DNA of 64,000 nucleotides from an uncultured Ectothiorhodospiraceae bacterium (GTDB lineage Bacteria > Pseudomonadota > Gammaproteobacteria > UBA9214): NCBI GenBank assembly GCA_947258615.1, contig CAMYIX010000043.1:1825-65824 (forward strand), in the 5' to 3' direction. Below, piece by piece: positions 35,490 to 46,306 of the stretch (the stretch's first letter is position 1; each line of letters starts with the position of its first letter). The notes beneath the pieces were generated by a model. The model was not told the DNA's origin, did no database searches, and saw only the letters and a program-made list of their open reading frames with translations. A program made the position numbers and the translations under genes.

Positions 35490-36377
35490 ATGACCTGGAA
35501 GTCAATCATTGACAGATTACTTTACAGCCTGATCAGCGTCTGCCTGACCCTGTTACTTGTTGCCTGCTCATCCATAGATGAGGGCGGGCAGCTTGCCACG
35601 TTGCGTATCGGCCTCTTGCCGGACGAAAGTGAAGCGGAGCTTTACAGGCGATATACACCTCTGTTCGAGTTTCTCGAGAAGGAAACCGGGATACCCATTG
35701 AGCTCACCATTCCGGATTCCTATGATGAACTTGTAGAACTGTTCTCGGGCGGGTCGGTGGATCTGGCGTATTTTGGCGGTTATACCTTCGTAAAAGCCAA
35801 TATCGACCATGGCGCCGTGCCCCTGGTTATGCGTGACGTGGACATCAATTTCACCAGCGTCCTGATTGCAAATGGCAACAGCCAGGTGAAGGACTTCACG
35901 GAAACAGTGGGAAAGCGCTTTGCTTTCGGCTCAAGACTCTCGACCTCTGGACATCTGATGCCACGGCACTTCATGATTTCGGAAAAGAATATTGACCCGG
36001 AGAAACACTTCAGCAGCGTGCGTTACTCAGGTCTTCATGATCAAACCGCCTACTGGGTGCGCGACGGGGAGGTGGATCTGGGGGTGGCCAATGGCCGAAT
36101 CATTCGAAAGATGCTACAGGACGGGCGGTTGAGGCCGCAGGACATACGGATTATCTGGGAAACTCCGCCCTATTCCGATTATGTCTGGGCGGTGCAAGCG
36201 GGAGTCACACGAAAAGACAGGGATAAGATCAGGCAGGCCTTTATGAAACTCTCTGTCGACAATCCGTCACACGCAGTCATCCTGCATAACATCGATGCCG
36301 GTGGTTTCCTTCCAGCCAGCGAACAGGATTTTATCGATTTGAAGAAAATCGCTATTAGTATGGAGGCTGGCGAATGA
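35490..36377 (+). CDS. PhnD-like periplasmic substrate-binding lipoprotein
   Basis: MTWKSIIDRLLYSLISVCLTLLLVACSS (lipobox), then LRIGLLPDESEAELYRRYTPLFEFLEKETGIPIELTIPDSYDELVELFSGGSVDLAYFGG. The start is uncertain (tracked ORF starts at 35427). Confidence 0.7.
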   Translation: MTWKSIIDRLLYSLISVCLTLLLVACSSIDEGGQLATLRIGLLPDESEAELYRRYTPLFEFLEKETGIPIELTIPDSYDELVELFSGGSVDLAYFGGYTFVKANIDHGAVPLVMRDVDINFTSVLIANGNSQVKDFTETVGKRFAFGSRLSTSGHLMPRHFMISEKNIDPEKHFSSVRYSGLHDQTAYWVRDGEVDLGVANGRIIRKMLQDGRLRPQDIRIIWETPPYSDYVWAVQAGVTRKDRDKIRQAFMKLSVDNPSHAVILHNIDAGGFLPASEQDFIDLKKIAISMEAGE

Positions 36378-39300
36378 GCATGCCTGGTATCTTTTTCTGC
36401 CTCACTACCCTCTCGATACGTCACTATCTGTACGCACTTGTTACCGTGATCAGTTTAATGGTGCTTTCCATAGTCGCCTATATGAGCTGGCAGCACCATC
36501 TGTACAAGGAAAAGGAATATATTTCCAATCATTATCACCTGGAGACGGTTTTATTGGCCACCAGGGTCAAGGAAGATCTGCATGGCATTGAAGCGCACTA
36601 TGCCAAACACAGAACTCGCGATCAGGCTACGGGAGGCCATCCCGTGGATGATGGATACTACAATCAGACAATATATCGACTTCAAATAAACTTTGCCGAG
36701 ATAATGCGATTGTACGAGATGTTCCGTTTCGTGCATGTCGAACAGGATTCCTATATGCCCATCCTTGTCAAAGGAGAGGGGCAGCTGGAGCGTATTAGTC
36801 AAGGGCTGCTCGCGGCGGACACGATGGGCCACTCAATGAGCAGCCTGTCGGCCTTTGCGCTCAGCATGGAGCAACTCAGGCGACTGCACTCGATTGACCA
36901 TAAAGATATGTATGTGCTGTCGGAGAGGCAGCGTATTCAGAGTCTCAGGAACTTGTCTGTTATTGCTTTTTTCATGCTGGTACTTGGTTTCCCGATAGTA
37001 AGAAAGATATTAGCGCAGTACAGGATCATGGTAGACCGGGAGCAGCGGAGCGAAACGGAATTGCGTCAGAGTGAGAATCGTTTCAGGTCATTGGCCAGCT
37101 CCGCACCTGTCGGTATTTTCCGTAGCAGGATGGACGGTGCATGGATTTACGTTAACGAGCAATGTTCCGAATTGATCGGACTTTCGCGAGATGCCTGCCT
37201 GGGGCAGGGCTGGAAGCGGCAACTGCGCGCCGATTATATGGGTGCTGCCGAGGCATCCTGGCTGCATATGATCGATGGATGTCATTCCTTGTCGGATGAG
37301 TACGCCTTTATTCGTGAAAATGGTAATCCCGTGTGGGTGATATGCCAGGCAAGGCCGGAGAAGGATGCCGCAGGTAATGTCATCGGTTACATAGGGACCC
37401 TGACCGATGTGACTGCACGTATCCGGGCCGAGAATGAAGTCAGACAGCGCAAGATGGCAATGGAAACCATTTTCAATTCTCTCCCGGACATTTTTTTCCG
37501 CATGGGAAAAGACGGGACCATTCTCGATTACCAGGCGAAAAACGACTCGGACCTGTATGTCGAACCGGAATGCTTCATTGGTAAGCGGATGCAGGATGTG
37601 TTGCCTGCGGATGTAGGCCAACTGTTCATGGAACACATGGGCTTGATAGGCGGGCCGGGGGAGACCGCTGCCTTTGAGTATGAACTCATGGTCAACCAGG
37701 TGACCACCCCGTACGAGGCGCGACTGGTTTGTCTCGGTGAAACAGACGAGATAATCGCCCTGGTACGGGATATTTCCGATAGGCTGCGCGCGGATCAACA
37801 ATTGCAGCAGGCCGCCATTGTCTATGAAAATACGGTGGAAGGTATATTTATTGCAGACGGTAAAGGCATTGTTGTGAGCGTCAATCGTGCATTCACGGAT
37901 ATTACCGGTTACGGGGCCGATGAGGTCCTGGGGAAAGGCTCCGGAATACTGGATTCAGGGCGTCATGATTCCGAATTCTCCAAATCGATGTGGAGCCAGC
38001 TCGACGAACAGAGTCACTGGCAGGGGGAGATCTGGAGCCGGCGCAAGGGCGGTGAGTCATTCCCTGCCTGGCTCAGCATCAACAGTGTCCCGGATTCATC
38101 CGGAAAGCTCTGTAACTACGTGGCGATCTTCTCGGATATTACAGAAATGAGGCGATCGCAGGACGAGCTTGAACATCTGGCGCGTCATGACGTCCTCACC
38201 GATCTGCCCAACCGGCTTCTGTTCGAATCGCGCCTGGAGCATGCTATTCATCACGCCCATCGAAGTGGCGAGTTCCTGGCGGTGATGTTTCTTGATCTGG
38301 ATCGCTTCAAGATTGTCAATGACAGCCTTGGGCATGCGGCCGGTGATTCACTGTTGCAGCAGGTGGCCACCCGGTTGACTTCAGTGGTCAGAAAAGAGGA
38401 TACCGTCTCCAGGATGGGGGGTGACGAATTCACTTTCCTTCTGGAGGATGTCTCATCCCGGGGCGCTGCAAAGATTGCCGAGAAATGTATCCACGCCCTT
38501 AAACAGCCAGTTGAATTCGGGGACAGGGAGATCTACCTGTCTGGCAGCGTGGGTATCAGCCTTTTCCCTGAGGATGGCGAGGATGTCGACACCCTGGTCC
38601 GTAATGCGGATGCAGCCATGTACAAGGCAAAAGCTGCTGGCCGTGACAATTATCAGTTCTATACCAACGAGCTGACTGTCAATGCCCTGGAGCAGGTCTC
38701 GATGGAGGCCCAGCTGCGGCGCGCGCTTGAGCGCAATGAATTCCGTTTAGTATACCAGCCGCAAGTAGAGATGCCCTCGGGGAAACTCATTGGTGTCGAG
38801 GCATTGCTGCGTTGGGAGAGCCCCGAGTACGGTCTGGTTGGCCCCGACCGCTTTATCCCCCTGCTTGAGGATAGCGGATTGATCGTGCCGGTGGGTGAGT
38901 GGGTCCTCGAGACGGCTTGCAGGCAGGCAAGGGACTGGTTGGATATGGGTTGGACGGATTGCAACATGGCCGTCAATGTCGCAGGAGAGCAGATCACCCG
39001 CAGCGACATTGTCGGCCTGGTGCACCAGATCCTGGACCGTACAGGGCTCCCGGCGGAGCGTCTGGAACTTGAAATGACCGAGACATTCGCCATGTCCGAT
39101 CCGGAAAACACCATTGGCATCTTTCAGGAGCTTCGTGACCACGGTATTCGCATCGCCATCGACGATTTCGGGACAGGTTATTCATCACTTGCCTATCTCA
39201 AGCGCCTGCCGATCGACAGGCTCAAGATCGACCGGTCTTTTATCAGGGATATTCCGGGAGACGTCGACGATGAGGCCATTACCCAGGCCATTATCGCCCT

Positions 39301-39487
39301 GGGCCAGTCGCTGCGACTTGATGTGATCGCGGAGGGCGTCGAGACCGCGGACATGGTCGATTTTCTTGTCAGCCATGATTGCCATTATGGGCAGGGATTC
39401 TTTTTTGGAAAGCCGATGGCGGCCGTCGCCATCCAGGAACTGCTCGATCTGGACCTCGAGATCATCCGCAATGCGGCATCCAGCTAG
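36374..39487 (+). CDS. Membrane sensor diguanylate cyclase/phosphodiesterase (2 TM, periplasmic loop, PAS x3, GGDEF, EAL)
   Basis: The ATG overlaps the upstream stop by 4 nt. The motifs are intact: RMGGDEFTFLL, EALLRWE, ELEMTE, DDFGTGYSSLAYLKRLPIDRLKIDRSF, AEGVE. Confidence 0.9.
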   Translation: MSMPGIFFCLTTLSIRHYLYALVTVISLMVLSIVAYMSWQHHLYKEKEYISNHYHLETVLLATRVKEDLHGIEAHYAKHRTRDQATGGHPVDDGYYNQTIYRLQINFAEIMRLYEMFRFVHVEQDSYMPILVKGEGQLERISQGLLAADTMGHSMSSLSAFALSMEQLRRLHSIDHKDMYVLSERQRIQSLRNLSVIAFFMLVLGFPIVRKILAQYRIMVDREQRSETELRQSENRFRSLASSAPVGIFRSRMDGAWIYVNEQCSELIGLSRDACLGQGWKRQLRADYMGAAEASWLHMIDGCHSLSDEYAFIRENGNPVWVICQARPEKDAAGNVIGYIGTLTDVTARIRAENEVRQRKMAMETIFNSLPDIFFRMGKDGTILDYQAKNDSDLYVEPECFIGKRMQDVLPADVGQLFMEHMGLIGGPGETAAFEYELMVNQVTTPYEARLVCLGETDEIIALVRDISDRLRADQQLQQAAIVYENTVEGIFIADGKGIVVSVNRAFTDITGYGADEVLGKGSGILDSGRHDSEFSKSMWSQLDEQSHWQGEIWSRRKGGESFPAWLSINSVPDSSGKLCNYVAIFSDITEMRRSQDELEHLARHDVLTDLPNRLLFESRLEHAIHHAHRSGEFLAVMFLDLDRFKIVNDSLGHAAGDSLLQQVATRLTSVVRKEDTVSRMGGDEFTFLLEDVSSRGAAKIAEKCIHALKQPVEFGDREIYLSGSVGISLFPEDGEDVDTLVRNADAAMYKAKAAGRDNYQFYTNELTVNALEQVSMEAQLRRALERNEFRLVYQPQVEMPSGKLIGVEALLRWESPEYGLVGPDRFIPLLEDSGLIVPVGEWVLETACRQARDWLDMGWTDCNMAVNVAGEQITRSDIVGLVHQILDRTGLPAERLELEMTETFAMSDPENTIGIFQELRDHGIRIAIDDFGTGYSSLAYLKRLPIDRLKIDRSFIRDIPGDVDDEAITQAIIALGQSLRLDVIAEGVETADMVDFLVSHDCHYGQGFFFGKPMAAVAIQELLDLDLEIIRNAASS

Positions 39488-39619: not shown

Positions 39620-40846
39620 TTATGGATGATCGAGCCGGTAGTGCCGCAATAGCGCCCCGGTTGTGGTGGCCTGGGCGAACAGGGTGAACAGCACCACGCC
39701 GAAGGCAATCGACTGGATGGTCCACCAGTAGTCCAGGCTGGTCGGCAGCGCCAGCGCCAGCGCCAGGGTGACCGCGCCGCGCAGCCCGCCCCAGAACATG
39801 ACGACCTGGTAGGGTCGGGGAATCGGCTCGATTGCGGGGAGTCTGGAGATCAGCGGGACCAGCCCGAAGATGCCGATCGCGCGTGCCACGAGCACCCCGG
39901 CGATACCGATCAGCATGGCCAGCCAGCGTTCACTGAACATGTCCAGGGTGACGGTGACGCCCATCAGCAGGAATACCAGCGCATTGGCCACGTAGGCATT
40001 GAAGGCCCAAAGGGTCCGCACGAAGCCGTCATCCCGGGCGCCGTTGCCGGTGGATGAACGGCCCAGGATGAGGCCGGTCACCAGTACCGCCATCACCCCG
40101 GAGACATGGAGCCAGTACTCTGCCAGTACGAAGCCGAGGTAGGCCGCGATGACCGTTGCCAGCGCCCGGGTGATTTCATCCCCGAGCAGCCGGGTGATGC
40201 CGACGAAGGCCAGGCCGATGAGCGCACCGACCAGCGCCCCGCCGAAAAAGACTGCGCAGAACCGCAGGCCGGCGTCCGCAAGGGTCATGGCCCCGCCGGA
40301 GCTTGTGGCCAGTGCGATAATGACCCCGAACACGACAATGGCGGTGGCATCATTGAACAGGCTCTCGCCTTCCAGCAGCACCGTCAGGCGTTCCGGTGCG
40401 CCCATTTGCCTGAACAGGGCCACCACCGCGACCGGATCGGTGGCCGACAGCAGGGCTCCGGTCAGCAAGGCCGCAATCCAGGGGAAGCCCGTAGGATGGG
40501 CGATACCCGCATACACCAGCACGGCCGTAATCAGGGTCGACAGCAGCATCAGCGGGATGGCGAGGAACAGGATCGGCACCAGGTTCTTCAGCAGCAGGCG
40601 CACATCGATGGTATAGGCCGACTCGAAGATCAGCACCGGCAGGAACACGAAGAACACCAGGTCGTGGAAATTGCCGGCACGGACACCGGTGTCGATACCG
40701 GCCCCCACCAGGACCTCGGAGGCCACAAAGCCCGCAATCACCAGGGTCGCGGTGAACGGCAGGTGCAGGCGCCGGGCCAGCGGCTGGATGAGCAGCGCGA
40801 GCAGCAACAGTCCCGCGAGTAACAGGATGACGTGCCCGGTGTCCAT
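39620..40846 (-). CDS. Cation:proton antiporter (CPA1 / NhaP-type Na+/H+ exchanger)
   Basis: 408 aa and polytopic. Contains SATDPVAV and LEGESLFNDATAIV motifs. Confidence 0.85.
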   Translation of the reverse strand: MDTGHVILLLAGLLLLALLIQPLARRLHLPFTATLVIAGFVASEVLVGAGIDTGVRAGNFHDLVFFVFLPVLIFESAYTIDVRLLLKNLVPILFLAIPLMLLSTLITAVLVYAGIAHPTGFPWIAALLTGALLSATDPVAVVALFRQMGAPERLTVLLEGESLFNDATAIVVFGVIIALATSSGGAMTLADAGLRFCAVFFGGALVGALIGLAFVGITRLLGDEITRALATVIAAYLGFVLAEYWLHVSGVMAVLVTGLILGRSSTGNGARDDGFVRTLWAFNAYVANALVFLLMGVTVTLDMFSERWLAMLIGIAGVLVARAIGIFGLVPLISRLPAIEPIPRPYQVVMFWGGLRGAVTLALALALPTSLDYWWTIQSIAFGVVLFTLFAQATTTGALLRHYRLDHP

Positions 40847-40860
40847 AGGGTGCCAGCCGC

Positions 40861-42396
40861 TCAGCCAGTCTTGGCCGGCGGTGTGTCCGTCGGCACGCTG
40901 ATGTCCGGGTGCAACTCGTTCAGTGGAATGGACAGGCCGTTTCCGGTGACCACGCGGGCATGCATGCGGGACAGCTGGCGGGGCTCCCGGACACCGCAGG
41001 AATGCGCAATGATCCCCACTTCATAGACGATGTTGCGGGCGTAGCTGGCCACCCGCACGGCTTTGTGTTTCGGGTCGAGGCCCTTTTGCAGACCCTTGTC
41101 GTGGGTGGTGATCCCGGTCGGGCAGGTGTTCTTGTTGCACTGCAGCGCCTGGATGCAACCTAGCGAAAACATGAAACCGCGTGCCGAGGTGATGAAGTCC
41201 GCACCCAGGCACAGTGCCCAGGCGACATCGGCGGGTGTGATCAGCTTTCCGGAGGCGATTACCTTGATACGCTCCCGCAGGCCGTACTCGTTGAGCTTGT
41301 CGAGCAGCAGGGGCAGACTCTCGCGTAACGGCAGGCCGACGTCATCGATCAGCGGCATGGGCGCAGCCCCGGTGCCGCCATCGGCACTGTCCACGGTGAT
41401 GAAATCCGGCGCGCTTTCGTTGCCGCGCTCATTGATTTCCCCGAACAGCCCGTCCAGCCAGCCATAGGCGCCGATTACGGCCTTGAAGCCGACCGGTTTT
41501 CCGGTCACTTCGCGGATCCGCCGGATCATGTCGAGGAGGTCACTGTTCGAATTGATATCCGGATGGCGGTTGGGACTGATGGCATCATGTCCCGGTTGAA
41601 TGCCGCGTATGTGTGCGATCTCCTGAGTGACCTTGGCGCCCGGCAAGATGCCGCCCTTGCCGGGCTTGGCGCCCTGGCTGAGCTTGATCTCGAACATCCG
41701 GACTTGCGCGTGTGCGGCAGCCTCCCGGAGCTTGTCGTCATTCAGGTTGCCGGCCAGGTCGCGCACCCCGTTCTTGGCCGTGCCGATCTGGAAGACCAGG
41801 TCGCAGCCCCCGTCGAGGTGCCAGGGCGACAGCCCGCCCTCGCCGGTGTTCAGCCAGCAGCCCGCCATTTTGGCGCCGCGCGACAGTGCCAGTACCGCGG
41901 GTTTCGAGATGGCGCCGTAACTCATGCCGGAGATATTGAACAGGGAATCGGTGGTGTAGGGTTCCCGGCAATACGGCCCGATGGTGATGGGCTGGGTGGG
42001 GACGGCGTCCTCGCCCAGGGTAGGGTAGGGGCAGTTGACGAACAGCACGGTGCCGGCCGGACGCAGATCGCGGGTCGAGCCGAAGCCGACGGTGTTATCG
42101 ATGTTCTTGGCGGCCCGGTAGACCCAGGAACGCTGGGCGCGGTTAAAAGGCAGTTCCTCCCGGTCCATGGCAAAGAAATACTGCCGGAAGAATTCCCCCA
42201 GGCGCTCGAAGAAGTTGCGAAGGCGTCCGATGACCGGGTAATTGCGACGGATGGCATGTTTGGTCTGGGTGACGTCGAGGATGAAGACGACGATGACGGC
42301 CAGGACACCCAGGCCGACCACAAAGACAAACAGGGTCGCCATGATATTGAGCGCGGCCTGGATGTAGGAAGCCGTTTCCCCGGACATGAACTCCAT
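40861..42396 (-). CDS. FMN-binding glutamate synthase family protein (GltB central-domain-like, membrane anchored)
   Basis: An N-terminal TM helix is followed by HAIRRNYPVIGRLRNFFE...ISGMSYGAIS...IKLSQGAKPGKGGILPG...DGGTGAAP. Confidence 0.85.
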   Translation of the reverse strand: MEFMSGETASYIQAALNIMATLFVFVVGLGVLAVIVVFILDVTQTKHAIRRNYPVIGRLRNFFERLGEFFRQYFFAMDREELPFNRAQRSWVYRAAKNIDNTVGFGSTRDLRPAGTVLFVNCPYPTLGEDAVPTQPITIGPYCREPYTTDSLFNISGMSYGAISKPAVLALSRGAKMAGCWLNTGEGGLSPWHLDGGCDLVFQIGTAKNGVRDLAGNLNDDKLREAAAHAQVRMFEIKLSQGAKPGKGGILPGAKVTQEIAHIRGIQPGHDAISPNRHPDINSNSDLLDMIRRIREVTGKPVGFKAVIGAYGWLDGLFGEINERGNESAPDFITVDSADGGTGAAPMPLIDDVGLPLRESLPLLLDKLNEYGLRERIKVIASGKLITPADVAWALCLGADFITSARGFMFSLGCIQALQCNKNTCPTGITTHDKGLQKGLDPKHKAVRVASYARNIVYEVGIIAHSCGVREPRQLSRMHARVVTGNGLSIPLNELHPDISVPTDTPPAKTG

Positions 42397-42629: not shown

Positions 42630-43238
42630 TCAGCAGCGCTCCTGGTTGCGCCAGCGCCGTGCGATCCAGTAGTCGGCACTGAAGTACCTGCCGGCACCAA
42701 GGTAGAGTAGCGCCAGCAGCATGATGAAATAGGTGGCGGCAAATTCGATACCGTTTTTCAGAATGGTGATGCCCCCGGTCTCGGTCAACCAGCTGTAGTT
42801 ACCATGTTCCCTGAGCAGACTCCTGGCAGCCTCCCGGCGCGTGTTGGCCTCCTCGATGAGGTCGGTTCGCCATTCCCAGGGGACAGTGAGGTCGGTCTCG
42901 GGCAGGACATGCCAGCCGTTATCCCAGTGTGCGGTCGTGGCGGCGACTAGCATGGTAAACATCAGGGGGATGACCGCCCAGCGGACTGCCAGTCCGGCCA
43001 GCAGTGCAATACCGCCCAGTAGCTCTGTCAGGGCGGCAACATAGACCATGAGCTCCGGTGCCGGGATGCCCAGCGACTCGAAATAGGGGCCGAGGTGTTC
43101 CGCATGTTTCAGCTTGTTACTGCCCGCCAGAATAAAGATCGGGGCCAGGAATAATCGCAGTGCCAGCGGGGCCAGAAAGTCCAGCGGGCGGATGACGCGT
43201 TCCAGCAGGCTCTGCAGGCAGTTCATGAATCCGATCAT
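42630..43238 (-). CDS. DoxX-family membrane protein, last gene of the MNIO cluster (HvfX/bufferin-operon DoxX-like)
   Basis: 202 aa. LALRLFLAPIFILAGSNKL...LTELLGGIALLAGLAVRW, with 4 TM helices. Confidence 0.8.
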   Translation of the reverse strand: MIGFMNCLQSLLERVIRPLDFLAPLALRLFLAPIFILAGSNKLKHAEHLGPYFESLGIPAPELMVYVAALTELLGGIALLAGLAVRWAVIPLMFTMLVAATTAHWDNGWHVLPETDLTVPWEWRTDLIEEANTRREAARSLLREHGNYSWLTETGGITILKNGIEFAATYFIMLLALLYLGAGRYFSADYWIARRWRNQERC

Positions 43239-43289: not shown

Positions 43290-44078
43290 TCAATGCCGTC
43301 TGGTGCCGGGGATGATGTCCTTCTCATGCAAGCCCCTGAAGATTGCCCGGCCACCCTCGACGACGACTTCGGGTTGCGGATGCGATAGCTCCCGGGCAAT
43401 GATCAGCAACAGTTCTTCGCCCGTGGCCCCGGGCTCCGATTCGACCAGTTCCAGCAACCGACGGGTGACCGGGTTGATCTCGATAAAGCCGACCTCGTCC
43501 CGGCGGTCGCGGTACACGACCAGGTAGGTCGGGGTATCCCCCGGCGCGTCCGGCCGGAAGTCGGGGCCGATGCGATGGACGGGATAGCGGTAGGCGAGAT
43601 GCCAAGCCAGCGGAGACAGCATCGGGCTACCCGTCATCAGATCACCCTCGGGGTCGAACTGTTCCGGGTCGAGCCGTTCATCCGCCACGGAGAGGGCCAG
43701 TTCCACCCACTCGTAGTGTGCCAGCTCCTGCAGGAAGGGCGGGTCCTCCGGGTGTTCGCTGCGCTCATGCTCCAGGTAGTTGAGGAATTCGCGCGGCATC
43801 TCCAGGAACAGCGGTGTATGTGCGCGGTGCCGGTTGAAGTAGTCCCTGATCAGGGCATGCCAGGCTGCATCATCCAGGATCCTGCGCAGGACCGGGAAGG
43901 TGCCGGACATGAAGCCCTCGACATTGTTGTAGAACAGCTCACGATAGATGCCCATGCGCCGGTCTTCGATATCTGCCGGTGCGGACCGGTGCTCCGGATC
44001 GCGTATATGGGCAGCGAATTCATACTGCCTGCGGACAAAATCCGGGAGTTCAGTTCTGGAGTGCGATGCCATGGCCAC
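43290..44078 (-). CDS. DUF2063-type partner protein of the MNIO (HvfC/BufC/MbnC-role-like)
   Basis: 262 aa. Its start overlaps the 3' end of the DUF692 gene by 29 nt. The assignment rests on position and a general resemblance to DUF2063 N-terminal sequences. Confidence 0.7.
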
Positions 44079-44910
44079 AGGCCGCCTTCCATTTGTTCTG
44101 CAATGCCTTGATGTGACTCATCTCGGCGAGCAGTTCCGGGAGCGGCGGGATATTGAAGTCGCGTTCCAGCAGGGTGGGAACCACGCCGAAATGTTCGTAG
44201 GCGGTTTCCAGCAGGTCCCAGACCGGGTCGATGACCGGGGCGCCGTGGGTGTCCACCTTGAGGTCGTCGGCCTCGTCGTAGTGTCCGGCCATGTGAAAAT
44301 AGACGACGCGCCCGGCGGGTAATGCCTTGAGAAACCGTTCTGCGTCATAGCGATGGTTGATGCTGTTGACGTAGATGTTGTTCACGTCCAGCAGCAGGTC
44401 ACAGTCGGCCTCGGACAGGACGGCGTTGATGAAGTCGATCTCGTCCATCTCCTTGCCCGGGGCCGCGTAGTAGGAAACATTCTCCATGGCGATGCGCCGT
44501 TCCAGGATGTCCTGAACGCGCCGGATGCGGCCGGCGACATAATGGACGGCCTCTTCGGTAAACGGGATGGGCAGCAGATCGTAGAGATGACCATCGTCGC
44601 TGCAGTAACTCAGGTGTTCGGTGTAAAAGCGGATATTGTGTTCATCGAGAAAGCGCTTGACCCTGAACAGGAAGGTCTCGTCCAGGGGGGCGGGGCTGCC
44701 GATGGACAGGGACAGTCCGTGCGCCACAAACGGGTAGCGTTCGGTAAACCAGCTGAAGTCCTTGCCCGGCTTGCCGCCGACGCCGATCCAGTTTTCCGGG
44801 GCCACCTCGAAGAAATCGACCGCATCCGGCGGGTTGTCCCGCAGCGGACCCATCAGGGTCCGCCGCAGTCCAAGTCCCGCCCCGGCGACCGGGTAGTGTG
44901 TTGCAGTCAC
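44050..44910 (-). CDS. DUF692 / UPF0276 multinuclear non-heme iron oxidase (MNIO; MbnB/HvfB/BufB-like)
   Basis: GLGLRR...FFEVAPENW...HGLSLSIG...YTEHLSY...ENVSYY...[14 protein letters not shown]...FHMAGH...VDTHG, 286 aa. Confidence 0.9.
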
Positions 44911-44928
44911 GGTTGCTAGGGGCGACGC

Positions 44929-45465
44929 TTACTTGTTAGCGCCGCACTTGCCTTCGCCGCACTTGCCTTCCATCATGCCCTTGGCCTTGTCGACCGCCTT
45001 GGCGCCGCCGCATTTGCCTTCACCGCACTTGCCTTCCTTCATTTTCATTTCGCTGGCATCGATTACGCCATCCGCATTCTTGTCCTTCTTGCTGAACATG
45101 GACTCGTGGGCTGACATGAACTCGTCCTTGGTGACCTTGCCATCGCCATCGGCGTCCATGCTCTTCATGCCGCATTTGCCCTCGCCACACTTGCCTTCCA
45201 TGGTGGCCTTGGCCGTGCCGCCGCACTTGCCTTCACCGCACTTGCCTTCACCGCACTTGCCTTCCTTGGTGGCCTTGGTTGCACCACCGCATTTACCTTC
45301 ACCGCACTTGCCCTCCGCCATACCGGCGACCATGTAGCCGCTGGAAAGCTCGGTCATGGCGAACGGATTCTCAGCGGCGGTGGCCGTGTTGATGCTCGCC
45401 AGCGAGGTCACGATGGCCGTACTCACAGCGATCGCCAGGGGTTTGATTACAGTTTTATCTGACAT
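44929..45465 (-). CDS. Secreted Cys-repeat protein: 11 x (E)GKCG motifs flanking a paired EF-hand (predicted MNIO substrate)
   Basis: GGAGAG RBS before ATG at 45465. A signal peptide ends INTATAA, then ENPFAMTELSSGYMVA. The EGKCG blocks follow. The EF-hand loops are DADGDGKVTKDE and DKNADGVIDASE. Confidence 0.85.
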   Translation of the reverse strand: MSDKTVIKPLAIAVSTAIVTSLASINTATAAENPFAMTELSSGYMVAGMAEGKCGEGKCGGATKATKEGKCGEGKCGEGKCGGTAKATMEGKCGEGKCGMKSMDADGDGKVTKDEFMSAHESMFSKKDKNADGVIDASEMKMKEGKCGEGKCGGAKAVDKAKGMMEGKCGEGKCGANK

Positions 45466-45530
45466 TAGATCTCTCCACACAGGTTTTTAGGAAATGGGGT
45501 CATTGCCCCGGTTGTAATGATTGTCTTTTG

Positions 45531-45550
45531 CATCAATGCGGTGATTGATG
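45531..45550. promoter_or_regulatory. Perfect palindrome CATCAAT-N6-ATTGATG upstream of the Cys-repeat gene (candidate operator)
   Basis: catcaatgcggtgattgatg lies 66-85 nt upstream of the ATG at 45465, in a 205-nt AT-rich intergenic region. Confidence 0.3.
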
Positions 45551-45670
45551 GAGTTTACGACATTGACTTGATTGAAAAGTTTCTCGGCCTCACGGATTTC
45601 TCAAATCCCCGGGCTTCTAGATAATATATTTATTAATCAACTGGTTATAGTGTAAATTGGGGTGCCACGA

Positions 45671-46306
45671 CTACTCCATCAGCTTGTGCCGGTACTCGCA
45701 CAGGTCCGAAATCACGCATGACTGGCAACGCGGCTTGCGCGCAATGCAGGTGTAGCGACCGTGCAGGATCAGCCAGTGATGCGCATCGTGCAGGAATTCG
45801 CCGGGTACCAGGCGCAGCAGCCGCTGTTCGACCTCGGTGACATTCTTGCCGGGGGCGATGCCGGTGCGGTTGGCGACCCGGAAGATGTGGGTATCCACCG
45901 CAATGGTCGGTTGTCCGAAGGCCGTGTTGAGGACGACGTTGGCGGTCTTGCGGCCGACGCCGGGCAGGGCCTCCAGCGACTTGCGGTCCGCGGGGACCTT
46001 GCCGTTATGCCGCTCCTCCAGCAGGGTGCAGGCCTTGATGATATTGCGTGCCTTGGTATTGAACAGGCCAATGGTCTTGATGTGTTCCTTGAGTCCGTCC
46101 TCGCCCAGATCGAGCATGGCCCTGGGTGTCCTGACCTTTTTGAACAGGCCCCGGGTGGCCTTGTTGACACCGACATCGGTGGACTGGGCCGAGAGGATGA
46201 CCGCGATCAGCAACTGGAAAGGGTTGCCGTATTCGAGTTCCGTGGTCGGTTTCGGGTTGGCCGCGCGCAGGCGTTCGAAGATTTGCTGGCGTTTGTCGCG
46301 GTTCAC
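45671..46306 (-). CDS. nth: Endonuclease III
   Basis: GTG start at 46306, 20 nt after the rnfE stop, gives 211 aa. The helix-hairpin-helix LPGVGRKTANVVL is present, as is the C-terminal CX6CX2CX5C cluster (CIARKPRCQSCVISDLC). Confidence 0.9.
   Translation of the reverse strand: MNRDKRQQIFERLRAANPKPTTELEYGNPFQLLIAVILSAQSTDVGVNKATRGLFKKVRTPRAMLDLGEDGLKEHIKTIGLFNTKARNIIKACTLLEERHNGKVPADRKSLEALPGVGRKTANVVLNTAFGQPTIAVDTHIFRVANRTGIAPGKNVTEVEQRLLRLVPGEFLHDAHHWLILHGRYTCIARKPRCQSCVISDLCEYRHKLME

Follow-up and report, generated by a model that had tools for sequence, protein, structure and literature searches.

The precursor described here connects two largely separate bodies of work, one treating EfhP as a 'Ca sensor' and the other treating EGKCG peptides as copper chelators made by MNIO enzymes. 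The efhP gene of P. aeruginosa (PA4107) was noted in 2014 to be operonic with DUF692 and DUF2063 genes (PMC4053335). Its product, for which SignalP 5 predicts a signal peptide, binds Ca2+ with a Kd of 13.7 μM and does not bind Mg or Sr; without Ca it is a molten globule that undergoes Ca-dependent folding, and D1/E12 loop mutants lose binding (PMC9132961). EfhP carries four EGKCG repeats, for which Fe sensing has been hypothesised (PMC11559002), and deleting the gene affects virulence, pyocyanin production and the transcription of iron-uptake functions. All the biochemistry on EfhP was done on protein produced without its maturase.

The chemistry expected of EGKCG peptides has been revised from oxazolone/thioamide to 5-thiooxazole, as in oxazolin, fontiphorin and gonophorin, and these peptides bind Cu. 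5-Thiooxazoles are installed by every characterised MNIO cluster with a type-1 partner. In vitro, FonBC acted on a peptide with two repeats and left one with a single repeat unmodified, and Gadgil et al. linked FonB residues R15/R16, D249 (the catalytic base) and F250 to EGKCG-type substrates. Chimaeras of EGKCG motifs and EF-hands were described in 2025 within the Buf_EGKCG/oxazolin family, as a second type with two EF-hand_5 domains of which EfhP is an example and for which combined Cu and Ca roles were suggested (PMC12452194). The literature searched on EF-hand-bearing members yielded no report of MNIO modification or Cu binding. A preliminary description of the present locus had taken an EF-hand insertion to be undescribed for this substrate class; this has to be withdrawn, given PMC12452194, PMC4053335, PMC9132961 and PMC11559002 and the NCBI name of the Pseudomonas EfhP-type protein, 'HvfA family ... 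RiPP metallophore'.

A gene of this kind lies on the minus strand of the window, that is, of the whole 64-kb stretch of DNA analysed here. The features of the locus are as follows.

44929..45465, minus strand: hvfA/efhP-like precursor gene; 178 aa, 11 Cys, two EF loops
45373..45465, minus strand: predicted Sec-type signal peptide, aa 1-31; A-x-A ahead of ENPF, read from the sequence and from conservation in homologues
45325..45372, minus strand: ENPFAMTELSSGYMVA motif (NPF..GY), aa 32-47; P34, F35, G43 and Y44 invariant
45169..45315, minus strand: N-terminal EGKCG array, aa 51-99; 7 Cys in blocks of 2+3+2
45037..45168, minus strand: EF-hand pair module, aa 100-143; loop 1 at 45121-45156, linker helix, loop 2 at 45049-45084
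44941..45036, minus strand: C-terminal EGKCG array, aa 144-175; 4 Cys in blocks of 2+2
45471..45476, minus strand: Shine-Dalgarno sequence GGAGAG, 5 nt upstream of the ATG at 45465
45556..45583, minus strand: promoter-like element GAAACTTTT-N14-GTCGTA, ECF/RpoE type, invariant in syntenic loci
44050..44910, minus strand: hvfB, MNIO-type maturase; NF003818 448.8 bits (cut-off 360), PF05114 E 1e-106
43290..44078, minus strand: hvfC, DUF2063/RRE partner protein; NF050145 323.7 bits (cut-off 142)
42630..43238, minus strand: hvfX, DoxX-family membrane protein; NF050144 187.5 bits (cut-off 80)

Translation of 44929-45465 (-) gave exactly the 178-aa protein first described, with the same cysteine positions and contexts and the same loops. 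All 11 Cys residues (54, 59, 71, 76, 81, 93, 98, 147, 152, 169 and 174) lie within EGKCG motifs, which are grouped in five blocks (51-60, 68-82, 90-99, 144-153 and 166-175), each a tandem set of at least two motifs. Four of these blocks have the boundaries given originally, while the third starts at 90 instead of 89, M89 being outside it. The start codon agrees with that of the homologues, which begin at the same MS.K. The NCBIfam domain model KCGExKCG_twice (NF050137) matched four stretches of the precursor and scored 82.9 bits, far above its cut-off of 19.5, which places the protein in the HvfA family. The HvfA equivalog model (NF050188) aligned from profile position 7 to 96 of 96 with aa 7-101 of the precursor, at 81.5 bits against a cut-off of 95. 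The precursor reads as a complete HvfA-like unit, made up of a predicted signal peptide, the NPF..GY motif and three EGKCG blocks, which is then followed by the EF pair and two more EGKCG blocks.

The repeats are also visible in the DNA. A perfect 15-bp repeat in 2.9 copies (45221-45264) encodes the triple EGKCG block, and a 66-bp repeat in 2.2 copies with 83% matches (45170-45315) underlies the EGKCG array. The perfect 15-bp repeat suggests that EGKCG sets expand by slippage. No other gene of the block syntenic with the L004 locus diverges nearly as much as hvfA, as would fit a rapidly changing number of repeats. An antisense ORF at 44933-45337 (+), encoding 134 aa with a PHLPSPHLPS repeat, was rejected as a gene and regarded as a by-product of the EGKCG coding repeat. 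The idea that the precursor ORF itself is an untranslated low-complexity artefact would fit its repetitive composition, in which G, K, A and E dominate, and the label 'uncharacterized low-complexity protein' that JGI gives to homologues; it is effectively refuted by conservation, as homologues in which the functional residues are invariant number in the thousands, the synteny and the Shine-Dalgarno sequence are conserved, and EfhP is an expressed and studied protein.

The hvfB, hvfC and hvfX genes are contiguous and directly downstream of the precursor gene on the same strand, so that the locus has the composition of an HvfA/captophorin gene cluster. Together with the KCGExKCG_twice score, this supports the earlier prediction of an MNIO substrate, for which the expected product is now revised to 5-thiooxazole. 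By position and motif, not by an alignment to FonB, residues R16-R17 and D251-F252 of the window HvfB match FonB R15/R16, D249 and F250. Upstream of the precursor gene lie nth and the rnf operon, and the whole rnfG-rnfE-nth-hvfABCX-gltS-like-nhaP block is syntenic with that of an uncultured Ectothiorhodospiraceae MAG (L004), the neighbour proteins being 88-95% identical; on this synteny the window was placed in a relative of that MAG. Further downstream, a glutamate-synthase-domain protein (40861-42396, -) and, from sequence reading, a putative cation/H+ exchanger (39620-40846, -) belong to the synteny with L004, and a connection with metals is obvious for neither. A PAS/GGDEF/EAL-like protein of 1037 aa (36374-39487, +) was likewise recognised from its sequence only.

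A 28-nt element, GAAACTTTTCAATCAAGTCAATGTCGTA (45556-45583, -), was found about 120 nt upstream of the hvfA start codon. Its consensus, GAAAC[TC]TT-N14-GTCnnA (GAAACTTT-N14-GTCnnA), has this sole match on both strands of the window and nine matches in 1.47 Mb of locus sequence. The element occurs at the same geometry in eight related loci (L002:80, L003:4887, L004:4885, L005:4886, L006:4886, L010:4882, L011:4882 and L035:4895). It fits AACTT-N16-TCnnA, which we take to be the consensus of RpoE/AlgU-type ECF sigma factors, and we infer that an ECF sigma factor recognises it. Such a promoter element suggests a link between the hvfA operon and envelope stress. A generic sigma-70 scan gave no convincing minus-strand promoter upstream of hvfA. 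The leader of about 90 nt (45466-45555, -), with equivalents in L003-L011, contains two small hairpins in which some of the changes are compensatory (e.g. GGGG..CCCC vs GGAAC..GTTCC); RNAalifold scored the two at -4 kcal/mol with 3 of 9 pairs compensatory, which is too weak to claim a structure, and an Rfam scan of 44800-45800 gave no match.

We then compared the precursor with its closest described relatives. BLASTP against WP_053150604, a Pseudomonas EfhP-type orthologue that is not PAO1 EfhP itself, gave an E value of 3e-18 and 48% identity over 86 aa, covering the EF pair and flanking EGKCG blocks. Proteins of the WP_053150604 type read ...EGKCGEGKCG-EF-EF-EGKCGEGKCG, followed by hvfB and hvfC, the same order as in the window protein. 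With EfhP the window protein shares an N-terminal signal/TM segment, EGKCG motifs, two loops of the EF-hand_5 type and downstream DUF692 (MNIO) and DUF2063 genes, the MNIO gene adjoining the precursor gene, and thus has the layout of chimaeras of the type Buf_EGKCG|EF-hand_5. Its differences are quantitative. The window protein has 11 Cys (7+4), as against 3-4 in the Pseudomonas EfhP-type proteins found and four EGKCG repeats reported for EfhP itself; its loop starts are 24 residues apart and not 27; it has the full NPF..GY motif where the Pseudomonas type retains L..GY only; and its DoxX gene is co-directional, whereas that of Pseudomonas is on the opposite strand. It also keeps a 17-residue two-motif repeat unit (aa 51-67), which PMC12452194 assigns to the non-EF type and finds absent from chimaeras. 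The window protein is therefore a real, conserved and expanded (7+4 Cys) member of an already described class and not a new class.

The captophorins, i.e. HvfA/oxazolin of H. influenzae, fontiphorin and gonophorin, resemble the window protein in the signal peptide, the NPF..GY region, the tandem EGKCG motifs and the HvfB/HvfC-type maturases. Unlike the window protein, they have no EF-hand module in the descriptions consulted, and the fontiphorin paper mentions no EF-hands. The bufferins (Buf1/DUF2282 and Buf2) are likewise Sec-exported, Cu-binding thiooxazole proteins made by closely related MNIOs with DUF2063 and DoxX partners, but their precursors have another fold and other Cys contexts, and the window HvfB reached 270 bits with the BufB model, below the cut-off of 310.

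From these comparisons we propose, with a probability of roughly 0.7, that the gene encodes an EfhP-family protein which is a Sec-exported precursor of the HvfA type ('oxazolin'/captophorin), with a predicted Ca-binding EF pair embedded between arrays of Cys repeats. The anatomy, conservation and gene linkage of the precursor come from the present data. In the cytoplasm, a complex of HvfB and HvfC would oxidise the EGKCG cysteines, seven before and four after the EF pair, to 5-thiooxazoles, by analogy with EGKCG peptides without an EF hand, on which others demonstrated both this modification and Cu binding. The signal peptide would then direct the product into the periplasm by way of the Sec system. 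Once exported, the EF pair, as in EfhP, would bind Ca2+ and fold into the only ordered part of the molecule, and the flexible, heterocycle-rich tails may chelate copper for buffering or detoxification. Since EfhP is a molten globule in its Ca-free form, and since both modification and Sec export need an unfolded substrate, we infer that the low Ca of the cytoplasm could keep the core unfolded so that both flanks are processed and exported, Ca acting as a folding or stability switch after export. The HvfA domain model, the HvfB, HvfC and HvfX scores, the RR and DF determinants of Lys-Cys-type MNIOs in HvfB, and the match to EfhP-type proteins argue for this proposal, as does, by analogy with the peptide that FonBC modifies, the presence of at least two EGKCG motifs in every set. 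The sub-threshold HvfA equivalog score and the absence of literature reports for EF-hand members count against it.

The two EF loops, DADGDGKVTKDE (104-115) and DKNADGVIDASE (128-139), have all canonical ligand positions and are the only two matches to the EF-loop pattern in a six-frame translation of the whole window. EF-hands were accepted when the score exceeded the gathering cut-off and canonical ligands 1, 3, 5 and 12 plus Gly6 were in place. The precursor scored 36.4 bits with Pfam EF-hand_1 (PF00036; cut-off 25.4) and 36.5 bits with EF-hand_5 (PF13202; cut-off 25.9), each with an E value of about 3e-9, and both loops are canonical. Scored singly, loop 1 came barely above the Pfam cut-off (25.7 vs 25.4 bits), and loop 2, with its ligand positions all canonical, fell under it (19.8 bits, E 5e-4), a point against the proposal above. 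The pair that had been claimed is present and conserved, but it falls short of the canonical pair model EF-hand_7 (PF13499), with 23.1 bits against 30. The loop starts are 24 residues apart, with a linker of 12 residues. In calmodulin-type EF pairs, loop starts are roughly 36 residues apart. The precursor pair is thus of the short-spaced bacterial type, as in lanmodulin. AF2 models were confident for the EF core alone (about aa 100-143, pLDDT 72-85), where a single continuous helix (113-127) joins the loops and a short exit helix follows (137-143); the EGKCG segments were disordered (pLDDT < 50) and the models uninformative on the arrays. The ordered EF core agrees with the EfhP-family proposal. 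Foldseek searches of the PDB with the full-length and core-only models returned EF-hand proteins exclusively, none of them significant (E > 0.1) and lanmodulin not among them, which weighs against it; we did not take these matches to indicate any particular fold class.

Lanmodulin (6MI5, 8FNS) was nonetheless the best match among solved structures at the sequence level, aligning ungapped over 48 residues to each lanmodulin half, with the same short-spaced pair, 12-residue linker and 24-residue distance between loop starts. One could therefore suppose that the pair is a lanmodulin-like site whose ligand in vivo is not Ca2+ but a lanthanide or some other hard cation, all the more as the NCBIfam LanM model (NF053806) gave a partial match and EfhP was never assayed with lanthanides. 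We consider this very unlikely. The LanM score was 36.3 bits against a cut-off of 135, the window protein has two loops and not four, in addition to Cys-rich tails, and its loops follow the calmodulin-like D-x-[DN]-x-D-G pattern with Ala/Lys at position 2. Pro at this position is characteristic of LanM. Finally, the Ca2+ affinity of EfhP is micromolar. Identity with lanmodulin was rejected on the score and on the missing Pro, and we retain the assignment of the pair to Ca2+ within the EfhP-family reading.

We next examined the distribution of the family. A word-indexed search returned 6877 matches; among the best 120 of these, 112 carry Cys before as well as after the EF loops, and the loop starts are exactly 24 residues apart wherever both loops were detected. 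In an alignment of 59 homologues, D104, D108, G109, E115, D128, G133 and E139 were invariant, as were F124, P34, F35, G43 and Y44, and F116, H120, N130 and D132 were near-invariant. Loss of the loops in orthologues, which the preliminary description had named as evidence against its reading, is thus not what is seen. When 1.84 billion representatives were searched exhaustively, 989 matched at E <= 1e-10; the best 150 of these included 31 chimaeras, 53 precursors with EGKCG only and 64 proteins with EF only. The NPF..GY motif is present in 46 of the 53 EGKCG-only and 22 of the 31 chimaera representatives, so that it is a general feature of the HvfA family, possibly a docking region for a partner protein. 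Among the reference genomes scanned, the chimaera was present in Ectothiorhodospiraceae, Thiogranum, Thiothrix, Chromatiales, Sinimarinibacterium, Thiobacillus, Hydrogenophilales, Nitrosospira and Pseudomonas. The EF insert, which might have been lineage-specific, hence occurs across Gamma- and Betaproteobacteria.

These searches also showed that members of the family as a rule carry EGKCG blocks before and after the EF pair, Pseudomonas EfhP-type orthologues included. The C-terminal blocks were accordingly rejected as an architectural novelty; the published description, which speaks of 'EF-hands fused to the C-terminus of a short EGKCG domain', omits them (PMC12452194). Homologues carry 4-12 Cys with a mode of 8, which puts the window protein at the top end. 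Long matches with many stretches were rejected as giant chimaeras: they are poly-EF proteins without EGKCG or Cys repeats (P0127, P0131, P0206, P0256 and others), long and secreted, in which the same short-spaced loop-helix-loop unit is repeated to give as many as 23 loops in 947 aa.

In 36 of 80 genomic loci, hvfB lies immediately downstream of the homologue gene. This linkage and the invariant EF ligands further support the EfhP-family proposal, against which stand at least 14 full-layout homologues (L007 and at least 13 others) with no MNIO gene within 5 kb. Such stand-alone homologues would fit an explanation in which the Cys of the EF-bearing subfamily stay unconverted and act as free thiolates, binding Cu or Fe as in metallothionein or ligating Fe-S, in line with the Fe sensing by EGKCG Cys that the EfhP authors put forward (PMC11559002). 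We regard this as unlikely, given that hvfBCX directly follows the gene here, that the HvfB determinants match E-G-K-C-G substrates, and that the characterised MNIO clusters with a type-1 partner all make 5-thiooxazoles. The L007 precursor (L007:4995-5519) stands alone and keeps 12 EGKCG Cys. It shares the synteny metG-fdx-nth-EF protein-ALDH-TPP enzyme with L056 (L056:4917-5186), and hvfBCX was absent from the flanks examined at both loci. At the syntenic position, L056 encodes an 89-aa EF-only protein that has lost the EGKCG blocks and kept the EF pair.

EF-only relatives such as the L056 protein, which keep the core without EGKCG, would also suit a second alternative, namely that the protein is mainly a periplasmic Ca2+ sensor. 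In this scheme, as proposed for EfhP, a hydrophobic surface exposed by Ca relays the signal to partners, and the EGKCG Cys provide a second sensing input, for Fe or Cu, and no bulk metal buffer. EfhP does undergo a Ca-dependent conformational change with increased ANS binding, and the effects of its deletion also speak for this scheme. Conversely, a Kd near 14 μM suggests that the sites would be saturated at typical periplasmic or external Ca, and a variable Cys copy number (4 to 12), growing by DNA slippage, is more in keeping with capacity than with signalling. A partner protein is not known, and the genes conserved in the operon encode maturation proteins. A sensor is therefore possible, but we give it a clearly smaller chance than the copper-binding precursor of the EfhP-family reading. 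If EfhP-type proteins are modified in vivo as the latter supposes, it may be necessary to reinterpret the published Ca, Fe and virulence phenotypes in terms of copper handling. The 11-Cys member, with its complete hvfABCX operon, would be a good substrate for probing the interplay of Ca and Cu binding.

The 24-residue-spaced EF core was also seen with other tails. In Nitrosomonas/Nitrosospira (L047, L053, L057, L058, L061, L063, L066, L067, L069, L070, L072 and L076) the tails are His-rich, with up to 16 His within the 45-aa flanks, and in Massilia and other Oxalobacteraceae (L062, L068, L073 and L080) they are Met-rich; neither kind has an MNIO gene nearby. These relatives may use the same Ca scaffold to bind Cu in the periplasm. 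As a more speculative extension, which we hold only tentatively, the EF pair could be a Ca-switched scaffold for interchangeable Cu-binding tails, made of MNIO-modified Cys, of His in ammonia oxidisers or of Met in Oxalobacteraceae. The Cys version would be unfolded in the low-Ca cytoplasm, allowing HvfBC to process both flanks and Sec to export the product, and would fold on periplasmic Ca, possibly into a lanmodulin-like four-EF dimer, so that the thiooxazole arrays of the two termini come together as a defined assembly that binds Cu.

Two of the loci collected carry unexpected taxonomic labels. L011 (CAVYIJ010000003.1) and P0069 are assigned to a 'Halobacteria archaeon' MAG, yet they contain the gammaproteobacterial rnf-nth-hvfABCX block with about 80% protein identity to the window, which probably reflects an error of binning or labelling. 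An EfhP locus of the Pseudomonas type is present in L071, whose label reads Leclercia tamurae (7.1 Mb).
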